Part shown: positions 5,995 through 57,630 of the stretch, piece after piece
How positions within the stretch are numbered: position 1 is the stretch's first letter
How the letters are laid out: each line of letters begins with the position of its first letter
Source of the DNA: Bdellovibrionales bacterium
Lineage (GTDB): Bacteria; Pseudomonadota; Alphaproteobacteria; UBA9219
Length of the DNA stretch: 64,000 nucleotides
NCBI GenBank assembly: GCA_040275305.1
Contig: JBEOJY010000001.1
Span: 78,858 to 142,857, forward strand
Direction of reading: 5' to 3'
The notes under the pieces: model-generated
Database searches by the model: none
What the model was told of the DNA's origin: nothing
Seen by the model: only the letters and a program-made list of their open reading frames with translations
Program-made: the position numbers and the translations under genes

Positions 5995-6135
5995 GGCAGG
6001 CGTCTGTCTATCTGCCCGCCTTTGAAGACGATGCCAAATACCGGAAGCTCCGCGACGTGATTGAGAATGTCGGCTTTGTCGCCAAGGACGAGGCGGATAA
6101 TCAGCTTAATCGGATGATATGGGGGAGGCGGTAAT
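5995..6135 (+). pseudogene. Remnant of a second threonine-dehydratase (ilvA paralogue) C-terminal ACT region
   Basis: Translation ...AFEDDAKYRKLRDVIENVGFVAKDEADNQLNRMIWGRR* parallels the ilvA C-terminus ...AERNDLRQVIQNVGFIATDETVNPAYRVFLAGG. A stop lies upstream and there is no N-terminal part. Confidence 0.55.
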
Positions 6136-6888
6136 TTACGGATTGCGGGTGTTTTCGTAATATCTCTTCGCGTTGACCATCCGACATGGGCGGTGACTAA
6201 TTTGGTAATTTGTTGATTTTATGGTGTTTCTTGGCGCGCCTGTGCATTCCGTCGAAGCCGATAGCGACATGTCGCATATCCAGATGTCGCACATCATGAT
6301 GTCGCCAATCCTCATCGCTGTGACGTGACTTATGCTGCCGTATAGGTGCGCGTTGGGATGTTTTCCTCCCTTATCCATAACAAACGTATTGGCAAAATCA
6401 CCTGTGTTTTTGAGCGCAATCATGGAGGTGGCATAAGTGCTTTGTCCTCGTGGGCTGCACAGCAGTTCGAGGGGAGGCAAGACCCATCGACCACCTAGGG
6501 CATCTTGTATCAGTTTTTGACCGAGAATTTCAGGGTCACGAATGTATGTTCCGCGATGTCCGAGTGAAGTCATGTTTCCAACTTCATGCGCCGCATCCTC
6601 GAAATTGGTCAGAAGCTGATTCCCTTCCTTGTCAGATAAATCTTTTGGGGAAGCAAATAAGCAATAAAGCAGGTTATCAGAAATACGAGTCGCTCCAGAG
6701 TAATTGGGATTTCTTACAATCTTCCAGACTCCCATGTAGATGCCTTGAGCAGGGATTAATTTTGCAATTTGATCGTGGCGCGGTATGGAAGGTATAAGCG
6801 CGGAATAATCCTCCGGTTCGATTGGAGATAACAGGCATGGGGATGTTGGAGTCTCTACAGGGTTTATGCGTGTTTCAGAATGTCGCAT
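6136..6888 (-). CDS. Hypothetical protein in a low-GC island; start and 3' end uncertain
   Basis: 250-aa ORF with atypical codon usage. 3' portion contains imperfect atgtcgc tandem repeats. No family recognised. Confidence 0.3.
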   Translation of the reverse strand: MRHSETRINPVETPTSPCLLSPIEPEDYSALIPSIPRHDQIAKLIPAQGIYMGVWKIVRNPNYSGATRISDNLLYCLFASPKDLSDKEGNQLLTNFEDAAHEVGNMTSLGHRGTYIRDPEILGQKLIQDALGGRWVLPPLELLCSPRGQSTYATSMIALKNTGDFANTFVMDKGGKHPNAHLYGSISHVTAMRIGDIMMCDIWICDMSLSASTECTGAPRNTIKSTNYQISHRPCRMVNAKRYYENTRNP

Positions 6889-7011
6889 TGTTAATACCCA
6901 ATCTTGTTGTTCTTATTGCATAAAAATCATCGCAGATTCAACTAGTCAGCGCATAATAATGCGGCTCGCTTTGTCATATACTCCGTAGGATTGGAAACCA
7001 GAAAGAGCAAC

Positions 7012-7105
7012 AAGCGCGATCCAGAGCCACAGAGACTATTCTATCGACTCTGGATCGCCTAAGTCGTCTCCCGCTTTGCAAGCGGGAAACTCCTCGCGAG
7101 ATGAC
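7012..7105. repeat. Interspersed palindromic repeat, family C (partial copy)
   Basis: cgcgatccagag...ctctggatcgcc...ctcctcgcgagatgac matches the copies at 11888, 28557 and 46770. Confidence 0.55.
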
Positions 7106-7149
7106 GCCCCATCCGCAAGGATTGTCTTTCCTGAGCCCTCTTTCTTTTG

Positions 7150-8532
7150 CTACCCCCTCTTCCACGTTGTCCCGTTGGGGCCGTCTTCGAGCGTGATGCC
7201 TTGGGCGGCGAGGGCATCGCGGATGCGGTCGGCTTCTTTGAAGTCGCGGACTTTGCGGGCGGCGAGGCGGGCGGCGATGGCGGATTCGATTTCGGATTCC
7301 GAGGGGCCAGAGAGGGCTACGCCTGCGCCTTTGAACCATGATTCGGCTGATTGCTGGAGCAACCCTAGGGCTTCTCCGGCGGCGATGATTTTGGCTTTCA
7401 GACGCGTTTTGTCTTCTGGCGATGATGCTTGATAGAAGGCGTTGACCAGCTCGTGGATTAGCGCGATGGCAAGCGGCGTGTTGAGGTCGTCGCGCAACGC
7501 CGCGTCTATGTTTTCGGGAATGGAGGTTTCATGCGTCGGCAGGTCAGTGGCGGCGCGAAGCGCTCCGTACCACCGGTCGAGCGTGGCTTTGGCTTGTTGC
7601 AGTGCGTCCTCGGAAAAGTCGAGCGGCTGGCGGTAATGGCCGGAGAGTAGCGCGAGACGCAGGGCTTCTCCCGGCGCGATGCCGAGAAGCTGGCGTACCG
7701 TGAAGAAGTTACCCAGAGACTTCGACATCTTGTCGTTGTCGATGGTCAGGAATCCGTTGTGCAGCCAGTAAGTCGCGAGCGGTTTGTGGTTTGCGCAGGC
7801 GCTTTGGGCAATTTCATTTTCGTGGTGCGGGAAGATGAGGTCGAGGCCGCCGCCGTGAATGTCGAACGTCTCGCCGAGATGTTCTTTCGCCATGGCCGAG
7901 CATTCGATGTGCCAGCCGGGGCGTCCGCGTCCCCATGGACTGTCCCAGCCGGGTTGGTCGTCGGCGCTCGGCTTCCACAGCACGAAGTCGGAGGGATCTT
8001 TTTTGTAGGGGGCGACTTCGACGCGCGCGCCTGCGACGAGCTCGTCGCGCGTGCGGCGTGAGAGCCTTCCGTAATCTGGCATCGATGGCACGTGGAACAG
8101 GACGTGGCCGTCGGCGGCGTAGGCGTGCTGTTGCTCGATCAGCGTTTGGATCATCGCCAGCATTTGCGGGATCGTTTGGGTGCAGCGCGGTTCAATATCG
8201 GGAGGCAGGGCGTTTAGCGCTTCCATATCCTCGTGATAGGCGTCGGTCGTTTTCGCCGTGATCGCGTCGATGGTTTCGCCGGACTGTTTTGCTTTGGCGA
8301 TGATCTTATCGTCGATATCGGTGATGTTGCGCACATAGGTCACGCGCGGATAATGCCGCTTTAATAGACGGTAGAGCGTGTCGAACACCACGACGGGCCG
8401 CGCGTTGCCGAGATGCGCGAAATCGTAAACAGTCGGGCCGCAGACATACATGCGAATATGCGCGGGATCGAGCGGCTTAAACTCTTCCTTGCTGCGGGAC
8501 AGGGTGTTGGTCAGGTGGATGGGGTGGGGCAT
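7150..8532 (-). CDS. cysS: Cysteinyl-tRNA synthetase
   Basis: MYVCGPTVYD, HLGN, KMSKSLGN class-I aaRS motifs. 460 aa. Confidence 0.95.
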   Translation of the reverse strand: MPHPIHLTNTLSRSKEEFKPLDPAHIRMYVCGPTVYDFAHLGNARPVVVFDTLYRLLKRHYPRVTYVRNITDIDDKIIAKAKQSGETIDAITAKTTDAYHEDMEALNALPPDIEPRCTQTIPQMLAMIQTLIEQQHAYAADGHVLFHVPSMPDYGRLSRRTRDELVAGARVEVAPYKKDPSDFVLWKPSADDQPGWDSPWGRGRPGWHIECSAMAKEHLGETFDIHGGGLDLIFPHHENEIAQSACANHKPLATYWLHNGFLTIDNDKMSKSLGNFFTVRQLLGIAPGEALRLALLSGHYRQPLDFSEDALQQAKATLDRWYGALRAATDLPTHETSIPENIDAALRDDLNTPLAIALIHELVNAFYQASSPEDKTRLKAKIIAAGEALGLLQQSAESWFKGAGVALSGPSESEIESAIAARLAARKVRDFKEADRIRDALAAQGITLEDGPNGTTWKRG

Positions 8533-8537
8533 GCGTG

Positions 8538-9029
8538 TCAGAACTCCTGCTGTAAAGCCCCTCGCCCTCCATAGGAGGGAGAGGGGTTTGGGGTGAGGGG
8601 GGAGTTTGGGTTTGCATGACTGACTCTCCCCCTCACCCTAACCCTCTCCCCCTCGCGGGGGCGAGGGAATCGCGCTGCGCTATCGCGGGCGTTTGTATCT
8701 AATGCTTTGAGTATGGCTTCTGTTACGCCTTCGGCATTTGCCAAAATGTCGTTGTTCCAGAAACGAAGGATTTGCCAGCCCCATTGTTTCAAATCTTTTG
8801 TGCGGCGTTCGTCGCGTTCGTTACTTGCATGTTGTCCGCCATCGGCTTCAATGACTAAATTATTTTCTATGTTGGCGAAATCGACGATATAGGGGCCGAT
8901 GGGATGTTGGCGGCGAAATTTGTAGTTTTGCAGTTGTCTGTGACGGAGGATGCTCCATAGCCTTCGCTCTGCGTCAGTAGGAATTCTCCGCATGTTTCGC
9001 GCATTCTGTAAGTTGCGCTTGCTCATCAA
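8538..9029 (-). CDS. DUF559 endonuclease-domain protein (Vsr-like fold) with a repeat-encoded C-terminal tail
   Basis: PTDAERRLWSILRHRQLQNYKFRRQHPIGPYIVDFANIENNLVIEADGGQHAS...DLKQWGWQILRFWNNDI. The last ~50 aa are read through the family-B repeat (PLTPNPSPSYGGRGA). Confidence 0.7.
   Translation of the reverse strand: MMSKRNLQNARNMRRIPTDAERRLWSILRHRQLQNYKFRRQHPIGPYIVDFANIENNLVIEADGGQHASNERDERRTKDLKQWGWQILRFWNNDILANAEGVTEAILKALDTNARDSAARFPRPREGERVRVRGRVSHANPNSPLTPNPSPSYGGRGALQQEF
8556..8676. repeat. Interspersed palindromic repeat, family B (G/C-rich cccctcgccc...gagggg type)
   Basis: Near-identical to 31245-31362. Internal inverted repeats. Confidence 0.6.
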
Positions 9030-10378: not shown

Positions 10379-10700
10379 GGCTACGGTTTTAGAGGATTTT
10401 TTGTCGGTTTGCAGCATGATTTTGCATTGCACCAATCGGAATTGTCGTGGGCATTGGCGTGATTCGTGAACGAGTACTGCCTTGGTGCTAATAATTTTTA
10501 GCAGCAGTATTTGTGCTTTTTCTGATTTATTTTTCCTGATGTTGCGGCGCAATATTTTTGTTTGTTTTTTTGTTTGATTTTTTTATGTGATTTATTGTTG
10601 ATTGTGGTTAAGTCAGGTGGTTTTGGCTTTAATATTTCAAGAGCGCCTCACTTGACGACACGATGACTGATAAACACTTTTTCTTTTAAGGAGTGATTTT

Positions 10701-10952
10701 ATGACTACTATGGCTGATGTTTACCTATCACAAAATTCCCGTGAAAAGTACGCGCGGGGAGCCGAAAATAATGATGAGCAACGAGCCGCGCATTCTGCTG
10801 TAGGTCGAATGACGGTGACATCTGCCCAAGTGGCTGCTGCAAGCCTTTGTAGTGGCTTTGGATTTGGCGATTATTCTTTGCGCGAGGGGGGGCATCCCAA
10901 GTGGGTTCGTGGGGGCCGCTATAATTGTAGTATGGACTGTGCTCCGGCTTAA
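10701..10952 (+). CDS. Small hypothetical protein (83 aa) with Cys/Gly-rich C-terminus; its own SD and terminator
   Basis: aaggag 7 nt upstream of the ATG. AT-rich promoter region. Intrinsic terminator 11010-11039 follows. AT-shifted codons. C-terminus CSGFGFGDYSLREGGHPKWVRGGRYNCSMDCAPA. Confidence 0.45.
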   Translation: MTTMADVYLSQNSREKYARGAENNDEQRAAHSAVGRMTVTSAQVAAASLCSGFGFGDYSLREGGHPKWVRGGRYNCSMDCAPA

Positions 10953-11009
10953 TTACTTAAGCTCTCATATTTTTGGGTGCCACGTTTCTATAGTTCTATA
11001 TGGAAACAA

Positions 11010-11039
11010 GGGCGGCTGATGGATCAGCCGCCCTTTTTG
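11010..11039 (+). terminator. Rho-independent terminator (bidirectional-looking) between the small ORF and the convergent oxygenase gene
   Basis: gggcggctga-tgga-tcagccgccc stem followed by tttttg. Confidence 0.7.
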
Positions 11040-11041
11040 CA

Positions 11042-11806
11042 TTATCCTTTCAGCGTGATCGGCTTGTCTGGGAAGGAGAGCTGGTCGCGGTCGCGCCAGA
11101 GGGAGCGGACATAGTTGACTTCCATCAGGCGGCGGACGCCTTTGATGGGGCGTTTTTCGAAGCCGTGGAAGGTCACGTCAGAACGGACGAAGATGACGGC
11201 GGAGTTGAACGCGGCGGTCGAGCGGCCTACCCATTTCTTGTCGGCATCATAGATATCCGTGCCCCAGTCTTTCGCTTCCGGGCCAGTGCACAAGTAGATC
11301 ACCATCGAGAAAAGTTTGGCCGTGATGTCCGGGTGCGGTTCCAGCCATGCGCCGTCGGTGTCTTGAATGTATTCGACGCGCAGGTAGCTGCCTTCGATGT
11401 CGTTTGGCGGGAGGTTCAGGGTTTCCGTAATTTGTCGCGCGACTTCCGGGCGCTGGAACGCATCGCAGAAGGTTTGGACCGCCGGGAAATCCTCGCGCAT
11501 TTCGGGCGTGAAGAAGGAGCGCTTTCGGTTGTTTTGCTCGTAATCGCGGACGCCTGCGCATTCTTCAATGGCTGGCGGCACGATGGGGAGGACGAGCACG
11601 CCGACGCACATGTCTTCCGGTAGCGTGTTTTTAAGCACCCAGCGACGGTAGGGCTGTTCCTTGATTTCGCTGGCTTTCAGTGCGCCGATGAAGTGGGTTG
11701 CGATGGATTCTGGTGAGGAGAGCTGGAGAAATTCGTGATAGGGTTTCCCTGAAATTTCTGCGCTTTGGTTTTCTTCGATTCGCAAGGCTGTTTGCGTGTA
11801 GGACAT
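11042..11806 (-). CDS. 2OG-Fe(II)-oxygenase-like protein (HxD...H facial triad), paralogue 1
   Basis: LEPHPDITAKL ... VTFHGFEKRP ... RRL. Start at MSYTQTALRIE; the upstream ORF extension runs through repeat C. Confidence 0.55.
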   Translation of the reverse strand: MSYTQTALRIEENQSAEISGKPYHEFLQLSSPESIATHFIGALKASEIKEQPYRRWVLKNTLPEDMCVGVLVLPIVPPAIEECAGVRDYEQNNRKRSFFTPEMREDFPAVQTFCDAFQRPEVARQITETLNLPPNDIEGSYLRVEYIQDTDGAWLEPHPDITAKLFSMVIYLCTGPEAKDWGTDIYDADKKWVGRSTAAFNSAVIFVRSDVTFHGFEKRPIKGVRRLMEVNYVRSLWRDRDQLSFPDKPITLKG

Positions 11807-11887
11807 GATGGCCTCATTTATTGTTGCGTTGTTGTATGGACAAAATGTACCGAGAAGGAGAATATGGGCAATATTCACAACAAGGGC

Positions 11888-12003
11888 CGTCATTGCGAGC
11901 CCCATTCTTGGGGCGAAGCAATCCAGAGTCACAAAAACTGCCTTTGCCGCTCTGGATTGCCACGTCGCTTTCCGCCTTCGGCGGAAAACTCCTCGCAATG
12001 ACG
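11888..12003. repeat. Interspersed palindromic repeat, family C
   Basis: gtcattgcgag...cgaagcaatccagag...ctctggattgccacgtcgc...ctcctcgcaatgac with terminal and internal inverted repeats. Confidence 0.65.
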
Positions 12004-12063
12004 GCCTTTGTTGCGATGCTTGTCCTAATCATCATCAGGGACGGCTTGGCAGTTACTACTCTC

Positions 12064-12810
12064 CTATCCCTTGTTTCCAAACGATCTTGGCGCCCAGTCG
12101 ATCAATTGCTTCATGCCGGGGATCGATTTGGCGAAGGCGCTGAGGGCGTGGCGGATGTTTTCGCGGTGGGCATACCATTCCGTGTCGACGTAGCACAGCT
12201 GCACGCTCATGCGCTTGCCTTTTTGCGGCAGAAAGCCGTGCCATGAATGGCCGCAGACGCGGAACATCAGGATGTTACCGTATTCCGGTTTGAACTCGAA
12301 GGCGTAGTCGTCGCGGTCGTTGCCGCGCAGGACGCGCAGGCGGCCTTTTTCGTAGGGCCATTCTTCGCTGAAGCCGATGAGAACGGTGATGATCTTGTGC
12401 TTCGAATCTGGATGCGCGTAACCTTCGTTGTAGTGTCCCGTGGTGTTGCCCATCATGACGATGGAGGCCGGGCGGCCCGTCAGGTCGATGTCGAATTTCT
12501 GTTCGACGAGGCGGCGGAAACGGTCGCTCAAAAGATCTTCCATGCAGTCCGCGAATTTGCGGCCATAGCGCAGATTGGCGAGCGCATAGCTGCCACGATC
12601 CGGGATAACAGGCGCTTCGGCAAGGACCGCCGCTTTTTCCTCCATGGGGAAGGCGTTTTCGATGTAGCAGAAATCGTAAGGGTCGCGGCGTAGCTCGGCG
12701 GCCTTGATTGCCTCTTCATTCAGGAGCTTGAATTGTGAACCGGGTTTGGGAGGTTTCGCGGTGACCGGCTCGACGAACTTTCTCGCGGTGGCTTCGGCTG
12801 GCGGCGTCAT
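12064..12810 (-). CDS. 2OG-Fe(II)-oxygenase-like protein, paralogue 2
   Basis: GYAHPDSKHK ... CGHSWHGF. Shares a colinear motif pattern with 11042-11806 (Y..W/C.L/I.N..P.E; HPD; FR/VRS..HGF). Confidence 0.55.
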   Translation of the reverse strand: MTPPAEATARKFVEPVTAKPPKPGSQFKLLNEEAIKAAELRRDPYDFCYIENAFPMEEKAAVLAEAPVIPDRGSYALANLRYGRKFADCMEDLLSDRFRRLVEQKFDIDLTGRPASIVMMGNTTGHYNEGYAHPDSKHKIITVLIGFSEEWPYEKGRLRVLRGNDRDDYAFEFKPEYGNILMFRVCGHSWHGFLPQKGKRMSVQLCYVDTEWYAHRENIRHALSAFAKSIPGMKQLIDWAPRSFGNKG

Positions 12811-12837
12811 GGCGGTTTTCTCCTTTGTTTGCACACG

Positions 12838-13022
12838 CGATGCTAGTAGTCTGTGTGACTTAAAAAGTAGCATTCTGACTTGGTCTTTTTCGCCGTGGCC
12901 GCGTCAAGAGGCTTGCTCGTAGCACGCGCTACGCGCTGCGCCTCTTTCCTTGCCACGTCAAAAAATTCCTGCGTCATAATCCTACTTTTTAAGTCACACA
13001 GACTACTAGCAAATACGGTTTT
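12838..13022. repeat. MITE-like element with ~29-bp perfect terminal inverted repeats
   Basis: gctagtagtctgtgtgacttaaaaagtag ... ctactttttaagtcacacagactactagc. Confidence 0.65.
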
Positions 13023-13031
13023 GTACGACAA

Positions 13032-14228
13032 CTAAAACTCCGGTAAGGACGGCTCCTTGTTGGGGGTCGCGGCTATCCCCTCGATTTCGATGAGCCATTC
13101 CGGGCGGCAGACGGGACCTTGCACGACAACGAAGGGTAGTTCGGGGCAGCGTTCGTTCAAGCGTTCCGCGATTCGCGCGTAGTCGGCCGGGTCGCGCAGA
13201 TAGACGGTCATGGTCATCATGTCGTCGAGCGACGCGCCGCCGGAGTTCAAAAGCGCTTCAATGTTTTCTAATGTGCGGTCAAGTTGTTTCTCTACGTCGC
13301 CGATGTGGACGACATCGCCAGCCGCGTCGATGCTGGCGGTACCGGAGATGTAGTAGTGGCGGCGGTCAGCGAACGAGACGCGCGCGCCGCGTTCGAAATG
13401 CACGTTGTAGTCTTTGGTCGCGCAAAGGCGGCTGAAATCGTTGAGGTAGGAGATTTGCTCCGGCTTCATGCCTAGAATCGAGTAGGCGTCCATGACGACG
13501 AGGTCGTAGCGGTGCGCTCCGCCGCCCTCGATTCCTGTGCTGGCGATGAAGTGCGTATCCCCCGTCAATCCGTTATGCGCGAACATGTCGCGGCGTTCAT
13601 CGACCATGCCTTGATAGAAGATATCGACACCCTTGACGTAGATCCATGTGCGCACGCAGTTGTCTTTCAGCGTGCCGCCTTGCGCCGCGAGCGCTGCGAT
13701 CAGGTCGTTGAACGCGCGGCGCGTTTGTTTAGACGAGGAGAGGGATTGGTCGGTGTTATGGGCGCAGAGGCGCGCGCTCCAGAGATGTTTCAGGTCTTTT
13801 CGCGCTATCAGGGTATGGGATGGACCTAGCCTTTGTTTATTAAGCTTGCCGCGTCCTTCGATGTGGTAGGCGCTCATCGCGATTTTGGCGTAGGGCAAGG
13901 GCGGTTGCTGCACGATCGAGACGGCGACCGGGTTTTCCGCGCTATCCTGTCCCAGAAACGAGCGGCGGATCGTTTCGGCCTGTGTGAGGGAATCGCTTAG
14001 GTAAACACGGCGGAACACCGCGCTGTCGTGGTCGAGGCCTTGGGCGCGCAGGGACTCGCTATAGAGCGATTCCAGACACTCTACCTGTTCCTTGAAGCTT
14101 AGATGTGATGGGGCAGTGAGTGTGAGGAAATGCTCGGTGTCACCGGAGGATCCTGCGAACGCCCGGTGCCTGACATCTGCACTTCTTGGGGCAGGGGTAG
14201 GGGGGATGTTGCGTGCTGGTTCGGACAC
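13032..14228 (-). CDS. Tandem YjgF/RidA-fold protein, chorismatase-like (FkbO/Hyg5/XanB2 family candidate)
   Basis: C-terminal 130 aa align to RidA (ISGTASID ... MTMTVYLRDPADYARIAE ... RPEWLIEIEGIAA). A second degenerate YjgF-like half precedes it (VRTWIYVKGVD...HFIASTGIEG). 398 aa. Confidence 0.45.
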   Translation of the reverse strand: MSEPARNIPPTPAPRSADVRHRAFAGSSGDTEHFLTLTAPSHLSFKEQVECLESLYSESLRAQGLDHDSAVFRRVYLSDSLTQAETIRRSFLGQDSAENPVAVSIVQQPPLPYAKIAMSAYHIEGRGKLNKQRLGPSHTLIARKDLKHLWSARLCAHNTDQSLSSSKQTRRAFNDLIAALAAQGGTLKDNCVRTWIYVKGVDIFYQGMVDERRDMFAHNGLTGDTHFIASTGIEGGGAHRYDLVVMDAYSILGMKPEQISYLNDFSRLCATKDYNVHFERGARVSFADRRHYYISGTASIDAAGDVVHIGDVEKQLDRTLENIEALLNSGGASLDDMMTMTVYLRDPADYARIAERLNERCPELPFVVVQGPVCRPEWLIEIEGIAATPNKEPSLPEF

Positions 14229-14444
14229 GGCGTTTGAGCCTCAATTGTACATCGCAGTTTAAGGTGGGCCTTCGCACAGGCTCTTACACTTCTTGTTTAA
14301 TCCGGTCAATTTTTAGTTGTTTAGGCTATTTAAGGGTTGTCAGTCAGGGAGGTGGGCGAGTAGGTTGCTGACTTAATCGGTTGACGACTAGGTCCGCGCA
14401 GGCGGGGTTCGGCGAGATTAAGGGCAGATTTCAGGGAGGATGCG

Positions 14445-14717
14445 ATGTTGCAATCGCGCATTGACGAGATTTTGGACGTTGTGGCGCAGAAGGCGATGAT
14501 TGATCGCAGCAAGCTGACGCGCGAGGCGAAGCTTAGCGATCTTAATGTCAGTTCGCTTGATATGGTCGAGGTGATGTTTGCGCTTGAGGACAAATTCGGC
14601 ATCGAATTGCCGTTTAACGCTAATGTCAATGCGAATGCGTTTGAGACATTGGGCGACGTGATCAATCTGGTGGAAAAGCAGATGGCGGCTTCCGGCAAGT
14701 CGGCAGCGAATGGATAG
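14445..14717 (+). CDS. Acyl carrier protein (NodF/AcpXL-like specialised ACP)
   Basis: SDLNVSSLDMVEVMFALEDKFGIELP matches the AcpXL/NodF pattern. Ser in the DSL-like motif. 90 aa. Confidence 0.8.
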   Translation: MLQSRIDEILDVVAQKAMIDRSKLTREAKLSDLNVSSLDMVEVMFALEDKFGIELPFNANVNANAFETLGDVINLVEKQMAASGKSAANG

Positions 14718-14723
14718 GCGCGC

Positions 14724-15941
14724 TTGACACGTCGCATCGTCATTACCGGGTTGGGCGTCATATCGCCGATTGGGCAATCGGTCGCCGAATTTGGGCAAAA
14801 CCTGTTCGCGGGCCGTTGCGGGATTGAGAGCGCGACGTTTACTTATCGCAACGCCGAAGTAAAATTTCCGGCGGCTCCGGTCAAGAATTTCAAAATCGAA
14901 GACTGGATTGAGCCCAAGAAGGCCTCGCTGCTTGATCGTTTTTCACAGTTCGCGGTCGCGGCGGCTTTACAAGCGATGAAGGATTCCGGGTTGGTTTTGA
15001 CGCCGGAAGACGCCGAGCGTATGGCGGTGATTACGGGCACAGGCGTGGGCGGGCAGAATACGCTTGAAGATTCCTATATGCGGCTTCTGGACGCCAATGG
15101 TTCGCCGCGCGTGCATCCGTTCACTATTCCGCGTCTGATGGCCAATGCCGGATCGAGCCAGATCAGCATGGCGACGGGTATCACGGGGCCGGGCTTCACG
15201 GTCGCGAGCGCTTGCGCGTCGGCTATCCATGCTATGGGCGTGACGCTGCACATGCTGCGCACTGGCTTTATCGACCGCGCGATTACGGGCGGTTCTGAAA
15301 GCTGTCTGACGTTTGGGACTTTGAAGGGGTGGGAGGCGTTGCGCGTGATGGCTCCGGACGTATGTCGTCCTTTCTCGAAAGATCGCGCCGGGATGGTGCT
15401 GGGCGAGGGGGCGGCTATGTTCGTTCTGGAGACGTTGGAGGCGGCACAGGCTCGCGGGGCGAAGATTTACGCCGAGTTCGCTGGGTTTGGTATGAGCTCG
15501 GATGCTAAGGATATCACCACTCCGGACGTGAAAGGCGCGTCGCGGGCGGTGGTGGCCGCGCTGAAAGATGCGGGGCTGAAACCTGAGGATGTCGATTATA
15601 TCAACGCGCATGGCACGGGCACGCGCATTAACGATCTGACGGAGACGGCGGCGTTGAAGCTCGCGTTGGGGGAAGATAGAGCCAAGAAGATTCCGATTTC
15701 GTCCAGCAAGTCGATGTTTGGCCATGCGCTTGGCGCGGCGGGGGCGTTGGAGATGCTCGCGACGGTGTTGGCGGTCTGCGAGGATAAGGCTCCTCCGACC
15801 ATCAATTATCTGGGTTTGGATCCCGAATGCGACCTCGATTGCGTGCCGAACGAGGCTCGGGCGATGCCAATCCGCGCGGCGCTGAACAATTCGTTCGCTT
15901 TTGGCGGGCTGAACGCAGTCGTGGCTGTGCGGAAAATTTAA
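14724..15941 (+). CDS. Beta-ketoacyl-ACP synthase, KAS-II type (NodE/FabF-like)
   Basis: Active-site Cys in ASACAS. His-His pair in HGTGT and GHALGAAG. 405 aa. Starts 7 nt after the ACP stop. Confidence 0.88.
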   Translation: MTRRIVITGLGVISPIGQSVAEFGQNLFAGRCGIESATFTYRNAEVKFPAAPVKNFKIEDWIEPKKASLLDRFSQFAVAAALQAMKDSGLVLTPEDAERMAVITGTGVGGQNTLEDSYMRLLDANGSPRVHPFTIPRLMANAGSSQISMATGITGPGFTVASACASAIHAMGVTLHMLRTGFIDRAITGGSESCLTFGTLKGWEALRVMAPDVCRPFSKDRAGMVLGEGAAMFVLETLEAAQARGAKIYAEFAGFGMSSDAKDITTPDVKGASRAVVAALKDAGLKPEDVDYINAHGTGTRINDLTETAALKLALGEDRAKKIPISSSKSMFGHALGAAGALEMLATVLAVCEDKAPPTINYLGLDPECDLDCVPNEARAMPIRAALNNSFAFGGLNAVVAVRKI

Positions 15942-16290
15942 AGCGACAAGTCTATGCCTGTCGCAGGATTTTTTGCGCTTCGCCCCGAGAGCATGTTCTT
16001 TTTCATAAGAATAGAGATGGTTGCCTGCACAGCGCGAATCATTGCGCATGTATTGTATCGCGTGTTGTATCTTTCTTCTGCATCAGTATTGCCGAATCTT
16101 CGGCATTCATTTTTATATTGTATGAATAAGTATATTCTGTCCATGACGCGGGGCTTGGTTATGGTTTCTTCTGCGACTGTGAAGAGGAGGCGTGTGTTGC
16201 TTGTGGCATGAACGATGAGAAGATTATCATTATTGCTGTATATTAGTTTATGCTCTTTAGCGAAAATGGATGCATCTTGGTTTAGAAATA

Positions 16291-16668
16291 CTATATTATT
16301 CTTTTTTCGTGATATATTCTGGTTCCTGCTTTAACTACTTGACCGTGGTGGGATCTTTTTGATTTCTCTGGGTCGATAATGCCGGTCTTTTGCGCTAGCA
16401 CATACAGTATTCCGAGTAGATTGTATTTGGATTCGCATACTGAGGCCATACGTTCTGCGCTGGCTCGTGCATTATGTTCTGTGTCACGTAAATTATATCG
16501 GATGTGTGCGGCGATATCTCGTTTCTGCGAGGTTACGTATGTAGCGTGCGCGTTTTCTAGCCATTTCAAATCTTCTCTTGAGAAAGCGGACATCGGAAAT
16601 CCACTGGCATTGAGAAATTTTCTGGTATCCAGAACTCCATCTTTGAATAGTTCAAGCGTGTCTTGCAT
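16291..16668 (-). CDS. Hypothetical protein in a ~1 kb AT-rich island
   Basis: 125-aa ORF, the only long ORF in the 15950-16900 low-GC stretch. No family recognised. Confidence 0.3.
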   Translation of the reverse strand: MQDTLELFKDGVLDTRKFLNASGFPMSAFSREDLKWLENAHATYVTSQKRDIAAHIRYNLRDTEHNARASAERMASVCESKYNLLGILYVLAQKTGIIDPEKSKRSHHGQVVKAGTRIYHEKRII

Positions 16669-16928
16669 GTAGTTTCCTATCTATATAAATAGAAGAGTAT
16701 ATTTTGCTGCGCATATTTCGGTAATTTATACATTATCCATGTTGGTGGTCAATGGTTGGGGGCTGCAGGCGCGCAGGGGGGTGATTTTTGTTATGTATAT
16801 GGCGATTAACAACATTTGATGATGTTGGCATGCGCATAGTTTATCGACACCTCATGTGGTAGAGGTGTTTTGTTTGATTTCTGAAAATAATCAGTTGCTT
16901 TTGTTGGGGATTGTGGAAACTATACTTC

Positions 16929-49283: not shown

Positions 49284-49435
49284 AGCTTCGTCAGCGCGGT
49301 CGGATACGGTCAGCGATTTTTGGCCGAATGCTTTTCGTTGCGGATTTCAAAATATTTATTTTCATTGTCGCTCCGCTAGTTTGATTTTTCATTATATTTT
49401 CCGGTTTCTCTCCAATCTGTCCTGAAGGGTTTTCC

Positions 49436-50407
49436 ATGACTCGCAGCCGCCTCGTCATAGCTGCTAAGCTTGCCTTGTCAGGTGGCATTATATATTTGCT
49501 GGGGCAGCGGTTCGAGGCTCGGCAACTTCTCGAATCGATGCATGGCTTCGATCCGTCTTATTTGTTGGCTTCGATCTTTTGCGCCGTTCTGGCCGTTCCC
49601 ATCGTTGGATACCGTTGGGTTCTGCTTGCTAAGGCGCTTTCCGTATCCATTTCGTTTGTCGAGGCCGTTAACGCGACGTTCGCAGGGCTGTTTGTCGGAC
49701 AAATATTACCAGGCGCCATTGGCGCAGATCTTGTGCGCGGCTGGATGGTTTGGAGGGCCAAAGTCAGCAACAAGCGCATGATCGCAAGCCTCGTGCTGGA
49801 CAGGGTCGTTTCGTTGGGCGCGGTCGGGCTTATGATCGCGGGGACGTTGCCGTTTCTTATTGTTCGGCTGCCGCGCGAGCATTTTCTTTGGGTGGTGTGG
49901 AGTCTTCTGGGATTGACCGGGTGTTTGATCGCGGCATATGTCGGCTTGCGTCTTTTCGGGCGCATCAGCAAGAATTTGTCCTTACGCGCCATGATCGACA
50001 AGCTTGATTTGAAGCGATTAAAATTGTCTGTCTCGGACGCTTTGGTTTTGGCGGCTCTCGGCATCGCCGGGCATGTCGCCATGATCGTGTCCGCCTATTT
50101 TCTTAGTAAGGCTATCGGCATGAATTCGGCGCTGTGGATGTGGATGCTGGTCATGCCGGTCGTAATTTTGGCCAGCGCTATCCCGCTTTCCATCAATGGG
50201 TGGGGCGTGCGCGAATTTATGATGATTCAACTTTGGGCATCTTTTGGTTTTCTTGAGTCTGAAGCGTTTCTGACTTCCGTCTGTCTTGGCGCCGTTGCCA
50301 TGGCGTCTAGCCTTCCGGGGGTTTGGTTTTATCTGAAACGTAAATCAGGGCGGTCGCGAGAATCCCTTGAAAAGTATGCACAGGGTTTTTCCAAGAGGTT
50401 GGTGTGA
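49436..50407 (+). CDS. Flippase-like membrane protein (UPF0104 / lysyl-PG-synthase TM-region family)
   Basis: ~8 TM helices, 323 aa. Family commonly partnered with polyprenyl-phosphate glycosyltransferases. Confidence 0.55.
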   Translation: MTRSRLVIAAKLALSGGIIYLLGQRFEARQLLESMHGFDPSYLLASIFCAVLAVPIVGYRWVLLAKALSVSISFVEAVNATFAGLFVGQILPGAIGADLVRGWMVWRAKVSNKRMIASLVLDRVVSLGAVGLMIAGTLPFLIVRLPREHFLWVVWSLLGLTGCLIAAYVGLRLFGRISKNLSLRAMIDKLDLKRLKLSVSDALVLAALGIAGHVAMIVSAYFLSKAIGMNSALWMWMLVMPVVILASAIPLSINGWGVREFMMIQLWASFGFLESEAFLTSVCLGAVAMASSLPGVWFYLKRKSGRSRESLEKYAQGFSKRLV

Positions 50408-52038
50408 TGACTCTTTCGATCAAAAATAAAAACGCAGTTTATCGCGCTATAGATTTCACTCAAATTCTTATTCTTGTTGGGATATTTGTTTATTACTTTG
50501 TCGAGAATTTCGTGTTGTCCGGGAGCTGGGAAATCCTAGCGCTTCGGAGCGTTGACGACGCGGCGATGCAGGGGGCTGTCCATAATATACATAAGGCGAT
50601 GACGGAGGGGCGTTATCCGCTTAACAAGCTGCTTGCAACATTCGATTATGCTTACGGCAACGCATACTGGCTCTTGACCTCCATACTTCTTTTTCCTTTC
50701 TATCTTATCGGCGACGCGCAGGCTCAGATCGTCGCGGGGCGGCAGATTTCCTTGCTGTTTGTCGCTGGCAGCATTTATGTCATGGGGCGCATTGTTGAAA
50801 AGTTGTATCCCGAATCTCGTCGATTGAAATATCCTTTGATGATCGCGATGGCAACCGCTCCGATGGTCGCGGTAATCGCAACGAAGCTTCACGTCAACGC
50901 GCCGTGCATCTTTTGGGGCGTTTTGTCGTTTTACTACCTTGTGCGACGTCCGGACTTTATCAGGAAAGATATGATGTGGTCGGCGGTGTTCGCCGGAGTT
51001 GCTGTGGGCTTCAAGCTTACGGCGGTTTTTATTCTTCCCGTCATAGGTTTGACGTTACTCAGTCAAATCTGGCGGTTCAGTCCTTTGAGGAAGATTACCG
51101 AGATCGCTATTTTTTCCGGCCTGTTTCTTGTGGTCGCCGCAGCTTCCATGTTTCCACCCTTGCTGTTGTTTCCGTTTTACGGCGACAAAATTTCCGAGGC
51201 CTATAAAGCTTTTTTGATGTTTAGGGATCTTGCCGCTATTGGCGGCAACAGCGACTTATTTTTGAAACTTATTAACACGCTTGGTTATTTTCTCTCGCCT
51301 TTGACACTTGCTGTCCTGTCGTTCCTGTTTCTTATGCTGATCCTTGACGATATCAGGAAGCGTAGATTTGTGAGTTCGTTCATTTTCGGCACCATCTTGC
51401 TGACGCTAGGTTATCTTGTTTTGACCGTCCAAAAGGATGCTACGTATGTCGCGAGTTATATGTTGAGCGTTAGCCTGTTCCTGCCGCTTGGGCTTCTGGG
51501 GGTCGCTGCGTTCCGTGCGCCAGAATCGATCAAGCTTACCGTACTTTATCTTATCGTCGTCTCTGGCTTGATTTGCATGACGCCTCATCAGAAAAGCGTG
51601 TTTGATTATTTTAATTTCTTTGCGCTTGCCAAAAGCGAAAAAGCGACTAATCAAATGGCTGCTCTGGAAGAGATAAGGTCCTTGGTTTCGCCGTTGAAGC
51701 TTCCAGTTCGTGTTTTACAGGATTGCGAGTCCGTTTTTCCGGCGACGATGTACACCGATGGCGTTTTTATCGGGTATATTTTCGGGGACCTGAAAGACAA
51801 GACGACATGGGGGGATTTTGACTATATCCTTTTGAGCCGCAAGCATTACATTGGTAAGCCGCCTGCTCCGCTGGTCATCGACAAGAAGACTCCATTGGAG
51901 AAGCTTTCTGGCACCGAACTTGAAGAAGCCATAAGACAGCGTCTGTATGACAAGGGGGATTATTACGGGCGCAAGTATCGTTTGATTTACGATCGTTACG
52001 ATTCGCTTTTGTATCAGCTTGTGAAGCCAGCAAAATAA
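50407..52038 (+). CDS. Polytopic membrane protein, GT-C-like (ArnT/PMT-type) glycosyltransferase candidate
   Basis: ~11 predicted TM helices in the first 400 aa plus a 140-aa soluble C-terminus. Start overlaps the upstream stop (TGATG). Confidence 0.4.
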   Translation: MTLSIKNKNAVYRAIDFTQILILVGIFVYYFVENFVLSGSWEILALRSVDDAAMQGAVHNIHKAMTEGRYPLNKLLATFDYAYGNAYWLLTSILLFPFYLIGDAQAQIVAGRQISLLFVAGSIYVMGRIVEKLYPESRRLKYPLMIAMATAPMVAVIATKLHVNAPCIFWGVLSFYYLVRRPDFIRKDMMWSAVFAGVAVGFKLTAVFILPVIGLTLLSQIWRFSPLRKITEIAIFSGLFLVVAAASMFPPLLLFPFYGDKISEAYKAFLMFRDLAAIGGNSDLFLKLINTLGYFLSPLTLAVLSFLFLMLILDDIRKRRFVSSFIFGTILLTLGYLVLTVQKDATYVASYMLSVSLFLPLGLLGVAAFRAPESIKLTVLYLIVVSGLICMTPHQKSVFDYFNFFALAKSEKATNQMAALEEIRSLVSPLKLPVRVLQDCESVFPATMYTDGVFIGYIFGDLKDKTTWGDFDYILLSRKHYIGKPPAPLVIDKKTPLEKLSGTELEEAIRQRLYDKGDYYGRKYRLIYDRYDSLLYQLVKPAK

Positions 52039-52050
52039 GTAGGATGTTTG

Positions 52051-52584
52051 ATGAATAGCGTTTTAAAGCCCAAGCAATTCATTCTTGATGTCGATGGCGT
52101 TATGACCACTGGCCAATTCCTCTATACGCCTGAGGGCAAGGCCATGAAGGTCTTTGGTCCGGACGATAATGACGCGCTTTCGCTGCTCAAACCGTATATG
52201 GATATCCGCTTCGTGACGGGCGACAAAAAGGGGTTTCCTATCAGCAAGAGACGCATCGTCGACGATATGGGCTTTTCTTTGGAGATCGTCAGCACGATTC
52301 GCCGCATCGACTGGATTCGCCAGCAGTTCGATCCTCAGGACGTTATCTATATGGGCGACGGAATCTTTGACCACTATGTCATGCGGCAGGTGGGGTATGC
52401 TATCGCGCCCGCAAATTCGGATGCACTTGCGAAGCGCCATGCGCATTTTGTCACGCAGAGAAGCGGTGGCGATCGCGCCGTCGCGGAGGCTTGTCTTCAC
52501 ATTCTGGAGAGGTTCTTCGCGCCCTATAATCCAGACATGTTGCCGAGCGAAAACACCAAGCTTTCCGGGGAGTGGACCGTATGA
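52051..52584 (+). CDS. HAD-IIIA phosphatase, KdsC-like
   Basis: ILDVDGVMTTG, ...GDK..., YMGDG..D motifs of the KdsC/YrbI subfamily. SD agga 5 nt upstream. Confidence 0.7.
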   Translation: MNSVLKPKQFILDVDGVMTTGQFLYTPEGKAMKVFGPDDNDALSLLKPYMDIRFVTGDKKGFPISKRRIVDDMGFSLEIVSTIRRIDWIRQQFDPQDVIYMGDGIFDHYVMRQVGYAIAPANSDALAKRHAHFVTQRSGGDRAVAEACLHILERFFAPYNPDMLPSENTKLSGEWTV

Positions 52585-53750
52585 TTCATCAAAGACTGGA
52601 GTCATTTCTCAACAAGCGGCGTTGCACGCTTTTGGGCCTTGGCCCTATGAGCGTCAATTGCGTCGATGCCGCAATCGAGTTGGCGAACGAGCATGAGATT
52701 CCGCTGTTGATGGTCGCCTCGCGGCGACAGATCGATTCTGAGGATTTCGGAGGGGGCTATGTCAACAATTGGACGACTTCGGAATTCGCTCGCTATGTGA
52801 TCGACCATGACAAGAAGGGCAAAATCCTTCTGGAACGCGATCATGGCGGGCCGTGGCAGAATACTAAGGAGATTGATGCGGGGCTTAGCCTGCGTCGCGC
52901 CATGGAGTCTGCCAAGGCGTCATATCGCGCCGATATCGATGCTGGATTTCAGATTATCCATATCGATCCGAGCGTGGATATTCATGGAACGCCGGATGTT
53001 GACGATGTTCTGGAGAGGATCTTCGAGCTTTATGAATATTGTTGGAGCCATGCGCAGAAGCTTCAGCGAGAGATCATTTTTGAGATCGGCACGGAGGAGC
53101 AGAGCGGTAGCACCAACACGCAGGAGGAGTTGGACTACACATTGAGAACGGTCAAACGCTTTTGTTCCAAGAACAATTTCCCACAGCCGACTTTTGTCGT
53201 CGTGCAGTGCGGTACGCGCACGAAAGAGACCCGCAATGTGGGGTCTTTCGACGCTCCGGTGCGCGTCGCCGACGAGTTGCCGCCGGAAATCCAGTTGCCT
53301 AGGATGATCGAGATTTGTAACAAATACTCCATCTTCATGAAGGAGCATAACGCAGACTATCTTTCGGATGCGGCTTTACAGTGGCATCCGCGTCTGGGCA
53401 TTCATGCGGCTAACATTGCGCCGGAATTCGGCGTCGCGGAGACTCGCGCTTTGGTTTCGATTCTGGAGTCCCATGGCCAGAAGAAGTCTGCCGAAGAATT
53501 TCTTAAGGCTTCGTATGATTCCAGAAAATGGGAGAAATGGATGGTCGAGAACACCAAGGCGACTGATCGCGACAGGGCCATTATTTCAGGACACTATGTG
53601 TTCTCCAAGCCGAAGGTCGTCGAGCAATTGGCGGCGGCCAAACAGAATCTCAAGGCGAAAGGCATCGACCTTGATCTTCAGCTTAAAGAGGCCGTCAAGA
53701 AATCCATCTTGCGCTATCTTGTCAATTTCCGTCTCGCGAGGGTCGCATGA
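52572..53750 (+). CDS. GatZ/KbaZ-family (tagatose-bisphosphate aldolase non-catalytic subunit-like) TIM-barrel protein
   Basis: The N-terminal ~110 aa align with E. coli GatZ: LLGLGPMSVNCVDAAIELA vs GICSVCSAHPLVIEAAL; LLMVASRRQIDSEDFGGGYVNNWTTSEFARYV vs [28 protein letters not shown]. Overlaps the kdsC-like 3' end by 13 nt. Confidence 0.55.
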   Translation: MDRMIHQRLESFLNKRRCTLLGLGPMSVNCVDAAIELANEHEIPLLMVASRRQIDSEDFGGGYVNNWTTSEFARYVIDHDKKGKILLERDHGGPWQNTKEIDAGLSLRRAMESAKASYRADIDAGFQIIHIDPSVDIHGTPDVDDVLERIFELYEYCWSHAQKLQREIIFEIGTEEQSGSTNTQEELDYTLRTVKRFCSKNNFPQPTFVVVQCGTRTKETRNVGSFDAPVRVADELPPEIQLPRMIEICNKYSIFMKEHNADYLSDAALQWHPRLGIHAANIAPEFGVAETRALVSILESHGQKKSAEEFLKASYDSRKWEKWMVENTKATDRDRAIISGHYVFSKPKVVEQLAAAKQNLKAKGIDLDLQLKEAVKKSILRYLVNFRLARVA

Positions 53751-54574
53751 ACAAGCGCGTTGCTACGATTATTTTGAATCGCAATCTGCCGGAGGCGACG
53801 GATCGACTGTATGATCATTTGATTAAACACGATGGCGATTTTACGGATGTGTATGTCGTCGAGTCCGGTTCCGATCCCGATCGCTTGTCCAAACATGTCA
53901 CATGGCGCGCGGATTGGCCTGAGGCGGTCGCTCATGGTTTGCGCTTTAACAGGGGGATGAATTACGGGTTGAGCCAGTTGTGGAAGGAAGGCAAGTTCAA
54001 GAACTATGACGCATTCTTTCTTCTGACGAACGATTCGGAACTGCAAGATAGCTCGACGCTCAAGCCGTTGTTGGATATTCTTGACAAGCATCGGCGGGTC
54101 GGGATTCTGTCGCCCTGCGGCAAGCGTTGGGGCGAAAGATTTCTGCTTAAGCATCAGACGACGAAATATTTTTGGTTCATTCACAACAACGCCTTGTTGT
54201 TGCGACGCGAGTTTGTCGAGGCGGTTCTTAACGCGGATCAGCCCGATCATATGGGGTTTTTGTTTGATGGCGCAAACTTTCGGGGCTACGGCGCGGAAAG
54301 CGAAATGATCGCCAAGGCCTATGCCAACGACTGGGCGGCGGCCATCACTTCGGATGTTTACGTCGGGGAGAACGAATCGTATCTTCTCAATCAGGCTGAT
54401 CTGATCAAGACGGAAGGCTATGAAGAGAATTTGAGGCTCTATATCGAGGAAGGCCAGCGCTGGATGCGCAATAAGTACGGATTCAACAGCCGCTGGTCGA
54501 TGCAGCAATATGTGAAGAGCTTCTACGAACGGTTCTTCGACTTTTATCCGGAATACAAAAACTATCAGGTGTGA
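53747..54574 (+). CDS. GT-A-fold glycosyltransferase-like protein
   Basis: VATIILNRNLPE at the N-terminus resembles the GT2 start; TNDSE possible DxD. ATGA overlap with the upstream gene. Confidence 0.4.
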   Translation: MNKRVATIILNRNLPEATDRLYDHLIKHDGDFTDVYVVESGSDPDRLSKHVTWRADWPEAVAHGLRFNRGMNYGLSQLWKEGKFKNYDAFFLLTNDSELQDSSTLKPLLDILDKHRRVGILSPCGKRWGERFLLKHQTTKYFWFIHNNALLLRREFVEAVLNADQPDHMGFLFDGANFRGYGAESEMIAKAYANDWAAAITSDVYVGENESYLLNQADLIKTEGYEENLRLYIEEGQRWMRNKYGFNSRWSMQQYVKSFYERFFDFYPEYKNYQV

Positions 54575-54582
54575 GGATCGTC

Positions 54583-54927
54583 ATGGACGTTATCGAAAAG
54601 CCTTGGGGCAAGGAAGAAGTGATCGAGATCAATGATCGCTATATGATGAAGAAGCTTACGATGTGGAAAGGCCATCGTTGCAGCATTCAGTATCATAACG
54701 TCAAATGCGAGACGATCTATGTGTTGTCGGGGCAGTTGCGCATCTATAGCGGCCCTTCGCTTGAAAAGCTTGACTCCAAGGTTTATGTGCCCGGCGAGAC
54801 GATCACGATCAGGCCGGGGACCGTTCATCGCATGGAAGCGGTCGAGGATAGCGTCTATCTAGAAGCCAGCACCCCGGAAATGACAGATGTGGTGCGGCTT
54901 CAGGACGATTATCAAAGGGCTTCGTAG
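54583..54927 (+). CDS. Cupin-domain protein (mannose-6-phosphate-isomerase type II C-terminal-like)
   Basis: EKPWGKEE ... H.CSIQYH ... ETIYVLSG. SD gagga upstream. Confidence 0.6.
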   Translation: MDVIEKPWGKEEVIEINDRYMMKKLTMWKGHRCSIQYHNVKCETIYVLSGQLRIYSGPSLEKLDSKVYVPGETITIRPGTVHRMEAVEDSVYLEASTPEMTDVVRLQDDYQRAS

Positions 54928-57627: not shown

Positions 57628-57630
57628 TCC

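Follow-up and report, generated by a model that had tools for sequence, protein, structure and literature searches.

Does the gap between the gltX gene and a pair of oxygenase-like genes in an uncultured Bdellovibrionales bacterium hold a genuine protein gene, and does that gene serve the oxygenases? The question concerns a stretch of 64,000 nucleotides (nt) of this organism (GenBank assembly GCA_040275305.1, contig JBEOJY010000001.1, positions 78,858 to 142,857 of the forward strand), called the window below, in which an open reading frame (ORF) of 83 residues occupies 10701..10952 on the + strand. A preliminary description had pictured a stand-alone gene of foreign codon usage and had considered a precursor like those of ribosomally synthesized and post-translationally modified peptides (RiPPs), a small secreted or toxic peptide, or a small regulatory protein. 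By comparing the locus with its relatives, we found that 10701-10952 probably encodes a predicted translated, soluble protein of 83 residues belonging to an undescribed family, unrelated to the oxygenases and long resident at this place.

The small ORF and its homologues in the gltX/oxygenase gap

The coding sequence, stop codon included, reads exactly as quoted in the preliminary description, and the strong ribosome-binding site reported there is the Shine-Dalgarno (SD) sequence AAGGAG at 10688-10693 on the + strand, separated by a 7-nt spacer from the ATG at 10701. A total of 3,423 bp of the locus is identical in L018, an assembly from an independent sequencing run. The three-base periodicity of the ORF is strong (P ~0.001 relative to composition-matched random open frames, a measure independent of host codon usage), and its amino-acid composition is protein-like (P ~0.01). 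The peptide has 3 cysteines and 11 glycines and contains VTSAQVAAASLCSGFGFGDYSLR and EGGHPK.

Relatives were recovered by searching with the flanking oxygenase and gltX and then retrieving the contigs, which yielded six distinct versions of the gap. Judged by synonymous substitutions per synonymous site (dS) in the flanking genes, the window lies ~0.9 from every other lineage, while L009 and L017 are 0.25 apart and L021 and L022 0.05. L022 and L024 carry an 85-residue ORF in the same position and orientation, with 46% identity over 72 residues (Smith-Waterman z = 25; tblastn E = 1e-18 against a small set of slot sequences). A 132-residue ORF of L021 and L023 has the common C-terminal core (z = 9), and a 68-residue ORF of L017 has the common N-terminus and a degraded core (z = 10), so that family lengths range from 68 to 132 residues. 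SD sequences (GAGGAG, GGGAGG, AAGGAG, TAGGAGG) stand 6-9 nt before the start in the positional equivalents of L017, L022, L021 and L016.

Two segments make up the family signature. The N-terminal segment (residues 1-36; 10701..10808, + strand) carries the motif M[TS][TS]..A.[VF][YW][LF][SP], and the conserved C-terminal core (residues 39-70, VTSAQVAAASLCSGFGFGDYSLREGGHPKWVR; 10815..10910, + strand) follows the pattern VT[ST]AQVAAASLC..FGFGDYSL..GGHP.WVR. This Gly-rich core, 78% nucleotide-identical between the window and L022, is the best conserved region, and its GGHPxWVR motif is also found in L021. The C-terminal third had been called Gly/Cys-rich; its glycine character is indeed conserved, but the extra cysteines are not; only Cys50 is shared, and with one relative. 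The window and L022 sequences have 3 cysteines each, of which only the one in SLC (window Cys50) is aligned; L017 has 0, the aligned SLC position of L021 has no cysteine, and the two cysteines near the C-terminus occur in the window sequence alone.

When the window and 25 loci were scanned with a profile built from the four members, no additional copy turned up. As far as it has been found, the family appears restricted to one clade of uncultured Micavibrio-like bacteria, always between gltX and the operon of 2-oxoglutarate (2OG)-dependent oxygenases. Its members come from assemblies of the runs SRR28882998, SRR36443203, SRR36443210, SRR7119519, ERR15459718 and SRR14932523. The host is taken to be Micavibrio-like because NCBI places Micavibrio in Bdellovibrionales while all the relatives are labelled Alphaproteobacteria.

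Codon usage and age of the gene

The G+C contents of the three codon positions (GC1/2/3) of the small ORF are 0.60/0.55/0.41, compared with a GC3 of 0.53-0.75 in 23 long host ORFs; T3 is 0.42 and G1 is 0.41. The composition is thus atypical, as had been noticed, but its interpretation as foreign went too far. The orthologues and slot ORFs have similarly low GC3 values (0.33 in L022, 0.37 in L017, 0.40 in L016 and 0.44 in L021) in lineages ~0.9 dS apart. Because low GC3 is common to orthologues at this distance, it would be a stable property of the gene and of the AT-rich DNA around it, and not a sign of recent arrival. The proportion of synonymous differences in the core likewise corresponds to the flanking-gene dS of ~0.9, from which we take the core to descend vertically. 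By this comparison the small gene is, as we read it, old in the clade.

A recently acquired foreign cassette, such as a moron or the cargo of a mobile element, would fit a GC3 of 0.41 in a host with a GC3 of ~0.7 and the self-contained set of SD, ORF and terminator. It would also fit the clear proneness of the slot to recombination and the presence, at 16.0-16.8 kb, of another AT-rich island that holds an orphan ORF. Nevertheless, low-GC3 homologues sit in the same slot across a dS of ~0.9, the dS of the core equals the background, and the peptide has no match in the phage, plasmid and viral collections. ORF and domain scans of the surrounding genes brought up no repeats, integrase or tRNA, although no dedicated repeat or tRNA scan was made. 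We regard such a recent arrival as unlikely.

The turnover within the slot is conspicuous. Between L021 and L022 (oxygenase dS 0.05), the gap is alike over no more than its first 58 nt and its last 353 nt, and the middle, which includes the family gene, is unalignable; L009 and L017 (dS 0.25) have different genes in the slot. These differences indicate that the gap is a recombination hot spot exchanging divergent alleles and small ORFs, and it amounts to a small natural experiment in how alleles and genes turn over among strains that are otherwise near-identical.

Other small ORFs were seen in the slot. In two near-identical strains, ORFs of a second family (59-63 residues, MTTSYLP.GD.TKPTERPEVGEEQEVVLKDPKDWGK...) separate the family gene from the oxygenase, at 979-1170 of the L021/L023 slot and 718-897 of the L022/L024 slot (slot coordinates, window orientation); they come with a terminator of their own (GCGGGGCGGGAAACCGTCCCGC-T7), the window has no such ORF, and neither Pfam nor NCBIfam yielded a match. 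The 137-residue ORF in the L009 slot (11195..10782, - strand), preceded by AAGGAGG and with a GC3 of 0.41, shows by eye a receiver-domain-like pattern; it has no Pfam match and was missed by the gene caller. In L020, whose gltX is 72% identical, a 147-residue gene with a weak Response_reg match lies at the same position (441-884, - strand), divergent from gltX, and no BLAST similarity was detected between it and the L009 ORF.

Purifying selection on the reading frame

Over the 32 ungapped codons of the core (window residues 39-70 against L022), the proportions of synonymous (pS) and nonsynonymous (pN) differences are 0.52 and 0.12, and differences at the three codon positions number 6/2/13. 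When the same alignment is read in the two wrong frames, the values become pS 0.21 with pN 0.23 and pS 0.07 with pN 0.22. The whole ORF against L022 gives pS 0.70 and pN 0.37 (Fisher P = 7e-5). A second relative shows the same at the other end of the protein: 35 aligned N-terminal codons against L017 have pS 0.75 and pN 0.28 (Fisher P = 8e-5) with all indels in frame, and among the first 21 ungapped codons 5 are identical, 7 differ only synonymously and 9 nonsynonymously, with position differences of 4/5/13. The frames remain open for 68-83 codons from a conserved ATG in three lineages, for which the joint chance is ~1.6e-5 if they are independent. The conservation check proposed in the preliminary description thus came out on the side of the ORF, the frames being intact and the excess of third-position changes in the core being specific to the frame.

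On these alignments, 10701-10952 is a predicted but real protein-coding gene under purifying selection, the window member of a new small-protein family. Selection is shown, to the extent that such comparisons measure it, to be strongest on the 32-residue Gly-rich core (FGFGDYSL..GGHP.WVR) and on the short N-terminal aromatic motif. An earlier view, in which only the N-terminus was conserved and the rest drifted neutrally, was overturned by the closer relatives.

Several points weigh against this reading. The family alignment (A4) comprises four distinct lineages only, namely the window, L022/L024, L021/L023 and L017. The 68-residue ORF of L016 has SD, ATG-ACT start and terminator in common with the window gene but no detectable protein similarity, and in L009 an unrelated 137-residue ORF without a terminator fills the slot, the family gene having been lost or replaced; so the gene is dispensable and turns over fast. 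The host-trained codon score of the small ORF falls at the 1.7th percentile of genuine in-frame chunks and within the off-frame distribution. The alignments behind the substitution ratios were picked by amino-acid similarity, which biases pN downward, and the use of the ungapped core and of the first 21 codons lessens this bias without removing it. No sigma-70 promoter could be convincingly placed on the + strand, by eye or by scan. The AlphaFold2 single-sequence model of the protein, which tentatively shows a helix at the N-terminus and small beta elements at the C-terminus, is unreliable (predicted local distance difference test score 54, predicted template modelling score 0.27). Finally, we infer a soluble binding protein simply because the product is hydrophilic and has no catalytic or membrane signature.

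If the ORF were spurious, the unit would be a non-coding small RNA or mere intergenic DNA. The absence of the ORF from the annotation of the NCBI Prokaryotic Genome Annotation Pipeline and from the Logan gene calls would fit this, as would the codon score just given, and when the gap is dinucleotide-shuffled, 6-19% of the shuffles contain an ATG ORF of 83 codons or more, a share that falls to 0.2-0.3% once a properly placed SD is also required. However, the synonymous excess is frame-specific against two different relatives and missing in the wrong frames, SD and ATG are conserved, indels are in frame, and the frame is open in several lineages, which makes a spurious ORF quite unlikely. A small RNA was dropped as well: the fold z-score is only -1.8, and no credible Rfam family was found, the sole hit being L20_leader at 22.4 bits (gathering score 58.7) over the terminator.

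The terminator and the upstream AT-rich block

The preliminary description had also noted a stem-loop with a T-tract behind the ORF, and this element held up well. It occupies 11008..11040 on the + strand as GGGCGGCTGA-TGGA-TCAGCCGCCC followed by TTTTTG. The hairpin (11008-11035) scores as a stem of 12 pairs, 8 of them G-C, closed by a 4-nt loop and placed ahead of a T-run, T5 in the window; alternatively, it reads as a 10-bp G+C stem. It lies past both neighbouring stop codons, 56 nt from that of the small ORF and 7 nt from that of the convergent oxygenase gene. The same hairpin, GGCGGCTG-loop-CAGCCGCC, is found with a variable loop in L017, L016 and L021; its apical pair shows one compensatory A-U to C-G change among the lineages, and every lineage with the hairpin has a T5-T7 tract on the + strand. 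No U-tract accompanies the hairpin in the direction of the oxygenase genes (- strand). In L021 the hairpin is directly 3' of the family ORF and ~490 nt from the oxygenase, with a second small ORF and its own terminator between the family gene and the oxygenase. The G+C-rich hairpin, the U-tract on the transcribed strand and the covariation are those of an intrinsic terminator, and by prediction it belongs to the small gene.

On the other side of the ORF, the AT-rich upstream region that had been pointed out is confirmed: the G+C content of 10400-10699 is 0.33-0.36 compared with 0.557 for the whole window. The AT-rich block between the divergent gltX and the small gene (10470..10625, G+C ~0.33-0.36) is partly conserved in relatives and is presumably the shared promoter and regulatory region of the two genes. 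At ~10595-10614 the block contains the 20-mer TTGTTGATTGTGGTTAAGTC, followed by GGTGGTTTT; the conserved 20-mer TTGTTGATTGTGGNTAAGTC, then GGTGGTTT, is found there and at the equivalent sites in L009, L016, L017 and L022. Its reverse complement includes a perfect DnaA box (TTATCCACA) in L009 and L016, with TTAACCACA in the window and TTACCCACA in L017. A replication origin was considered and dropped, because the DnaA-box-like TTATCCACA is not kept in the window or in L017 and the GC skew shows no sign switch. Since the skew keeps its sign here, the 20-mer probably serves to regulate gltX or the small gene rather than as an origin. Five metagenome loci matched by the 20-mer have nothing else in common with the region and were set aside as chance.

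Closer to gltX, ~120 nt just upstream of its start (10382-10500, - strand) are conserved, with 74-81% identity to L009 and no Rfam match, and the first 58 nt upstream of the start are 100% identical between L021 and L022. This stretch may be a leader or promoter element of gltX.

Why the gene is absent from protein collections

A word-indexed peptide search of 5.8 billion proteins returned no match, the exact small-protein sequence is absent from 15 billion proteins, and no match to the peptide came from JGI metagenome contigs, from viral contigs, or from plasmids or phages. Pfam, NCBIfam, PHROGs, PADLOC and PDB, searched by sequence and by profile, yielded nothing credible for any family member. 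Four matches from phmmer against 1.84 billion representative proteins were all tandem-repeat proteins and were rejected as chance: their E-values are sums of ~27-bit matches per repeat (WVRxxRYNC, HPTWVRG), and one of them resembles what we take to be a translated CRISPR-type repeat array.

In the source metagenome-assembled genome (MAG), gltX is MER2519141.1 and the oxygenase is MER2519142.1; the accessions are consecutive, and therefore no gene is annotated in the gap. Among the Logan gene calls, none falls in the gap of L018, L016, L017 or L009, and in L021/L023 the caller took an overlapping 58-residue frame with a GC3 of 0.66 over the conserved frame with a GC3 of 0.44. Direct protein searches came back empty because the gene had never been called, and its low GC3 is the likely reason why gene finders skip the small ORF.

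The gene resembles other orphan small protein genes that pipelines miss: it has fewer than 100 codons, is AT-shifted, lies in an intergenic gap with a strong SD and its own terminator, is absent from Pfam and NCBIfam, and was skipped by the source annotation and the Logan calls. It differs from them in being conserved across a dS of ~0.9 with a frame-specific signal in the ratio of nonsynonymous to synonymous substitutions (dN/dS), and in allele replacement between near-identical strains. To our knowledge, maintenance by selection has rarely been demonstrated for orphan small ORFs. We therefore have a small-protein family without detectable relatives and a concrete case of why such genes stay unseen; the biological consequence is modest, the function being open and the kind, a lineage-restricted small protein gene, well known.

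Relation to the neighbouring oxygenases

The two 2OG-Fe(II) oxygenase-like genes (11042-11806 and 12064-12873, - strand) are convergent with the small gene, as had been reported. Their description as paralogues holds only in a distant sense (21% identity, E = 9e-5), and their Pfam matches to 2OG-FeII_Oxy_3 are weak, with E = 0.002 (below threshold) and 4e-6. The oxygenases evolve at a dN/dS of 0.05-0.14 in every comparison, including those with L009 and L016, which have no family gene. L009 is the sister of L017 (oxygenase dS 0.25) and has kept both oxygenases at ~0.05-0.08 without it. In eight distant oxygenase loci (L001-L008) and in L010, unrelated genes lie downstream and there is no such ORF. 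Co-travel of the small gene with the oxygenases across related genomes, which had been suggested as a check, fails in the same way: homologues are found in the same slot of three other lineages and in neither L009 nor L016. A functional link between the small gene and the oxygenases is not indicated, and as read from these genomes it is not supported.

Two other roles can be imagined. In one, the small protein would turn over fast as a partner or substrate of the oxygenases, which might hydroxylate it on, say, the Pro, His or Trp that are invariant in GGHPxWVR. In the other, it would serve a predatory Micavibrio-like bacterium as a diversifying protein of the effector or immunity type. The grossly different alleles in near-identical strains would then follow from selection to vary. 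We think either role very unlikely.

In a narrower version, the ORF would be a RiPP-like precursor or dedicated substrate of the two adjacent oxygenases (prolyl-hydroxylase-type, PF13640), the N-terminal part being recognised and the Gly-rich core hydroxylated or cross-linked. Hydroxylation of a RiPP precursor by a 2OG oxygenase has a reported example in CinX, which is said to act on the cinnamycin precursor. The comparison holds in several respects: a short ORF of suitable size adjoins two such oxygenases in every lineage carrying the family gene, and an N-terminal segment is followed by a core with invariant or near-invariant Pro, His, Trp, Asp and Tyr, in principle hydroxylatable. The leader-plus-core look has its basis in these two conserved segments, but the RiPP interpretation placed on it finds no support. 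The C-terminal core is the more conserved of the two segments rather than hypervariable, and reading the alignment revealed no evident cleavage motif. The cysteines are not conserved, and the core has no conserved Cys/Ser/Thr pattern of modifiable residues. The oxygenases stay constrained, at a dN/dS of ~0.05-0.1, in L009 and L016 without a recognisable homologue of the proposed precursor, and the L010 and eight distant loci likewise keep them without it; unlike RiPP precursors, the gene shows no co-occurrence with the enzymes beyond simple synteny, and its adjacency is explained by synteny within a single clade. It is moreover a separate, convergent transcription unit with a dedicated terminator in between, to which L021 adds another ORF and a second terminator. 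No RiPP recognition element (RRE) or PqqD-like domain, leader peptidase or other protease, or exporter is adjacent, the neighbours being the oxygenases, a RidA/FkbO-like protein, an acyl carrier protein (ACP), a ketoacyl-ACP synthase (KAS), gltX and a DUF559 gene. We consider the precursor highly improbable. A secreted or toxic peptide fares no better, since no hydrophobic N-terminus or transmembrane stretch is apparent on reading the sequence, and its grand average of hydropathy (GRAVY) is -0.55.

Barely plausible, finally, is gene decay, in which the ORF would be what is left of a larger, pseudogenised gene (for example one for a YiaK/Ldh_2-type dehydrogenase) or a gene being lost: the loss or replacement in L009, the unrecognisable state in L016 and the lengths of 68 to 132 residues would suit it, as would a weak 48-residue alignment (G.G..LR..H.W.RGG.Y) with YiaK residues 77-124 (NCBIfam E = 0.0024; PDB 1nxu and 1s20, E = 0.39), but the other members and the family profile lack this match, which makes it a chance resemblance, and the core is under purifying selection with intact frames and conserved expression signals.

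The oxygenases themselves belong to a conserved five-gene cluster (11042-15941) comprising the two 2OG-Fe(II) oxygenases, a 398-residue protein, an ACP and a KAS, to which relatives add a family 2 glycosyltransferase (GT2) and GtrA. The 398-residue protein carries a RidA/YjgF domain at its C-terminal end and matches FkbO/Hyg5 chorismatases weakly, and the family of the first oxygenase counts at least 859 homologues, most of them from Alpha- and Betaproteobacterial MAGs. This set (RidA/FkbO-like protein, ACP, KAS, GT2, GtrA) presumably points to a small-molecule or lipid pathway.

A possible role of the small protein

To return to a long-resident gene encoding a soluble protein, the small gene would form a monocistronic unit starting in the AT-rich region that it shares with the divergent gltX, and its terminator would halt transcription before an antisense run into the convergent oxygenase operon. 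The low GC3 may be a long-standing trait of a gene that lies in AT-rich DNA, is weakly expressed and is under weak codon selection. The product might be a cytoplasmic small binding or regulatory protein acting via its C-terminal module, and would be neither substrate nor partner of the neighbouring oxygenases. The regulatory role named in the preliminary description is possible in this light, and a small soluble cytoplasmic binding or regulatory protein is our guess. The family proteins are hydrophilic (GRAVY -0.55 to -1.0, with 10-13% Gly, as counted from the sequences), and no signal peptide, hydrophobic N-terminus or transmembrane stretch was seen in them when the sequences were read by eye.

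Small hydrophilic Gly-rich stress proteins of bacteria, hydrophilin-like or of the KGG/YciG or CsbD type, offer another comparison. The family resembles them in size (68-85 residues), in glycine content and hydropathy, and in having no predicted stable fold, but it is a small family without sequence or profile match to them. An EcfG-type promoter (GGAAC-N16/17-CGTT) was not seen by eye upstream of the small gene.

Further observations along the window

The second AT-rich island extends over 16001-16800 (G+C 0.40-0.43) between the KAS gene and miaB. It contains an ORF of 125 residues (16291..16668, - strand), the hypothetical protein ABTQ34_00465 (MER2519147.1), which forms a cluster of one and has no credible Pfam, PHROGs or PADLOC match (best E = 0.074). 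On the other side of gltX, between gltX and cysS, a gene with a DUF559/Vsr-like endonuclease domain occupies 8538..9029 (- strand, G+C 0.46-0.50); L020 has the same gene order. Downstream of cysS, a 250-residue ORF without a Pfam match (6136..6888, - strand) lies in a lower-G+C stretch (6000-7200, G+C 0.47-0.50). Farther along, 49400-58000 is broadly lower in G+C (0.46-0.53) and GC3 (0.53-0.65) than the rest of the window and may be a separate island.

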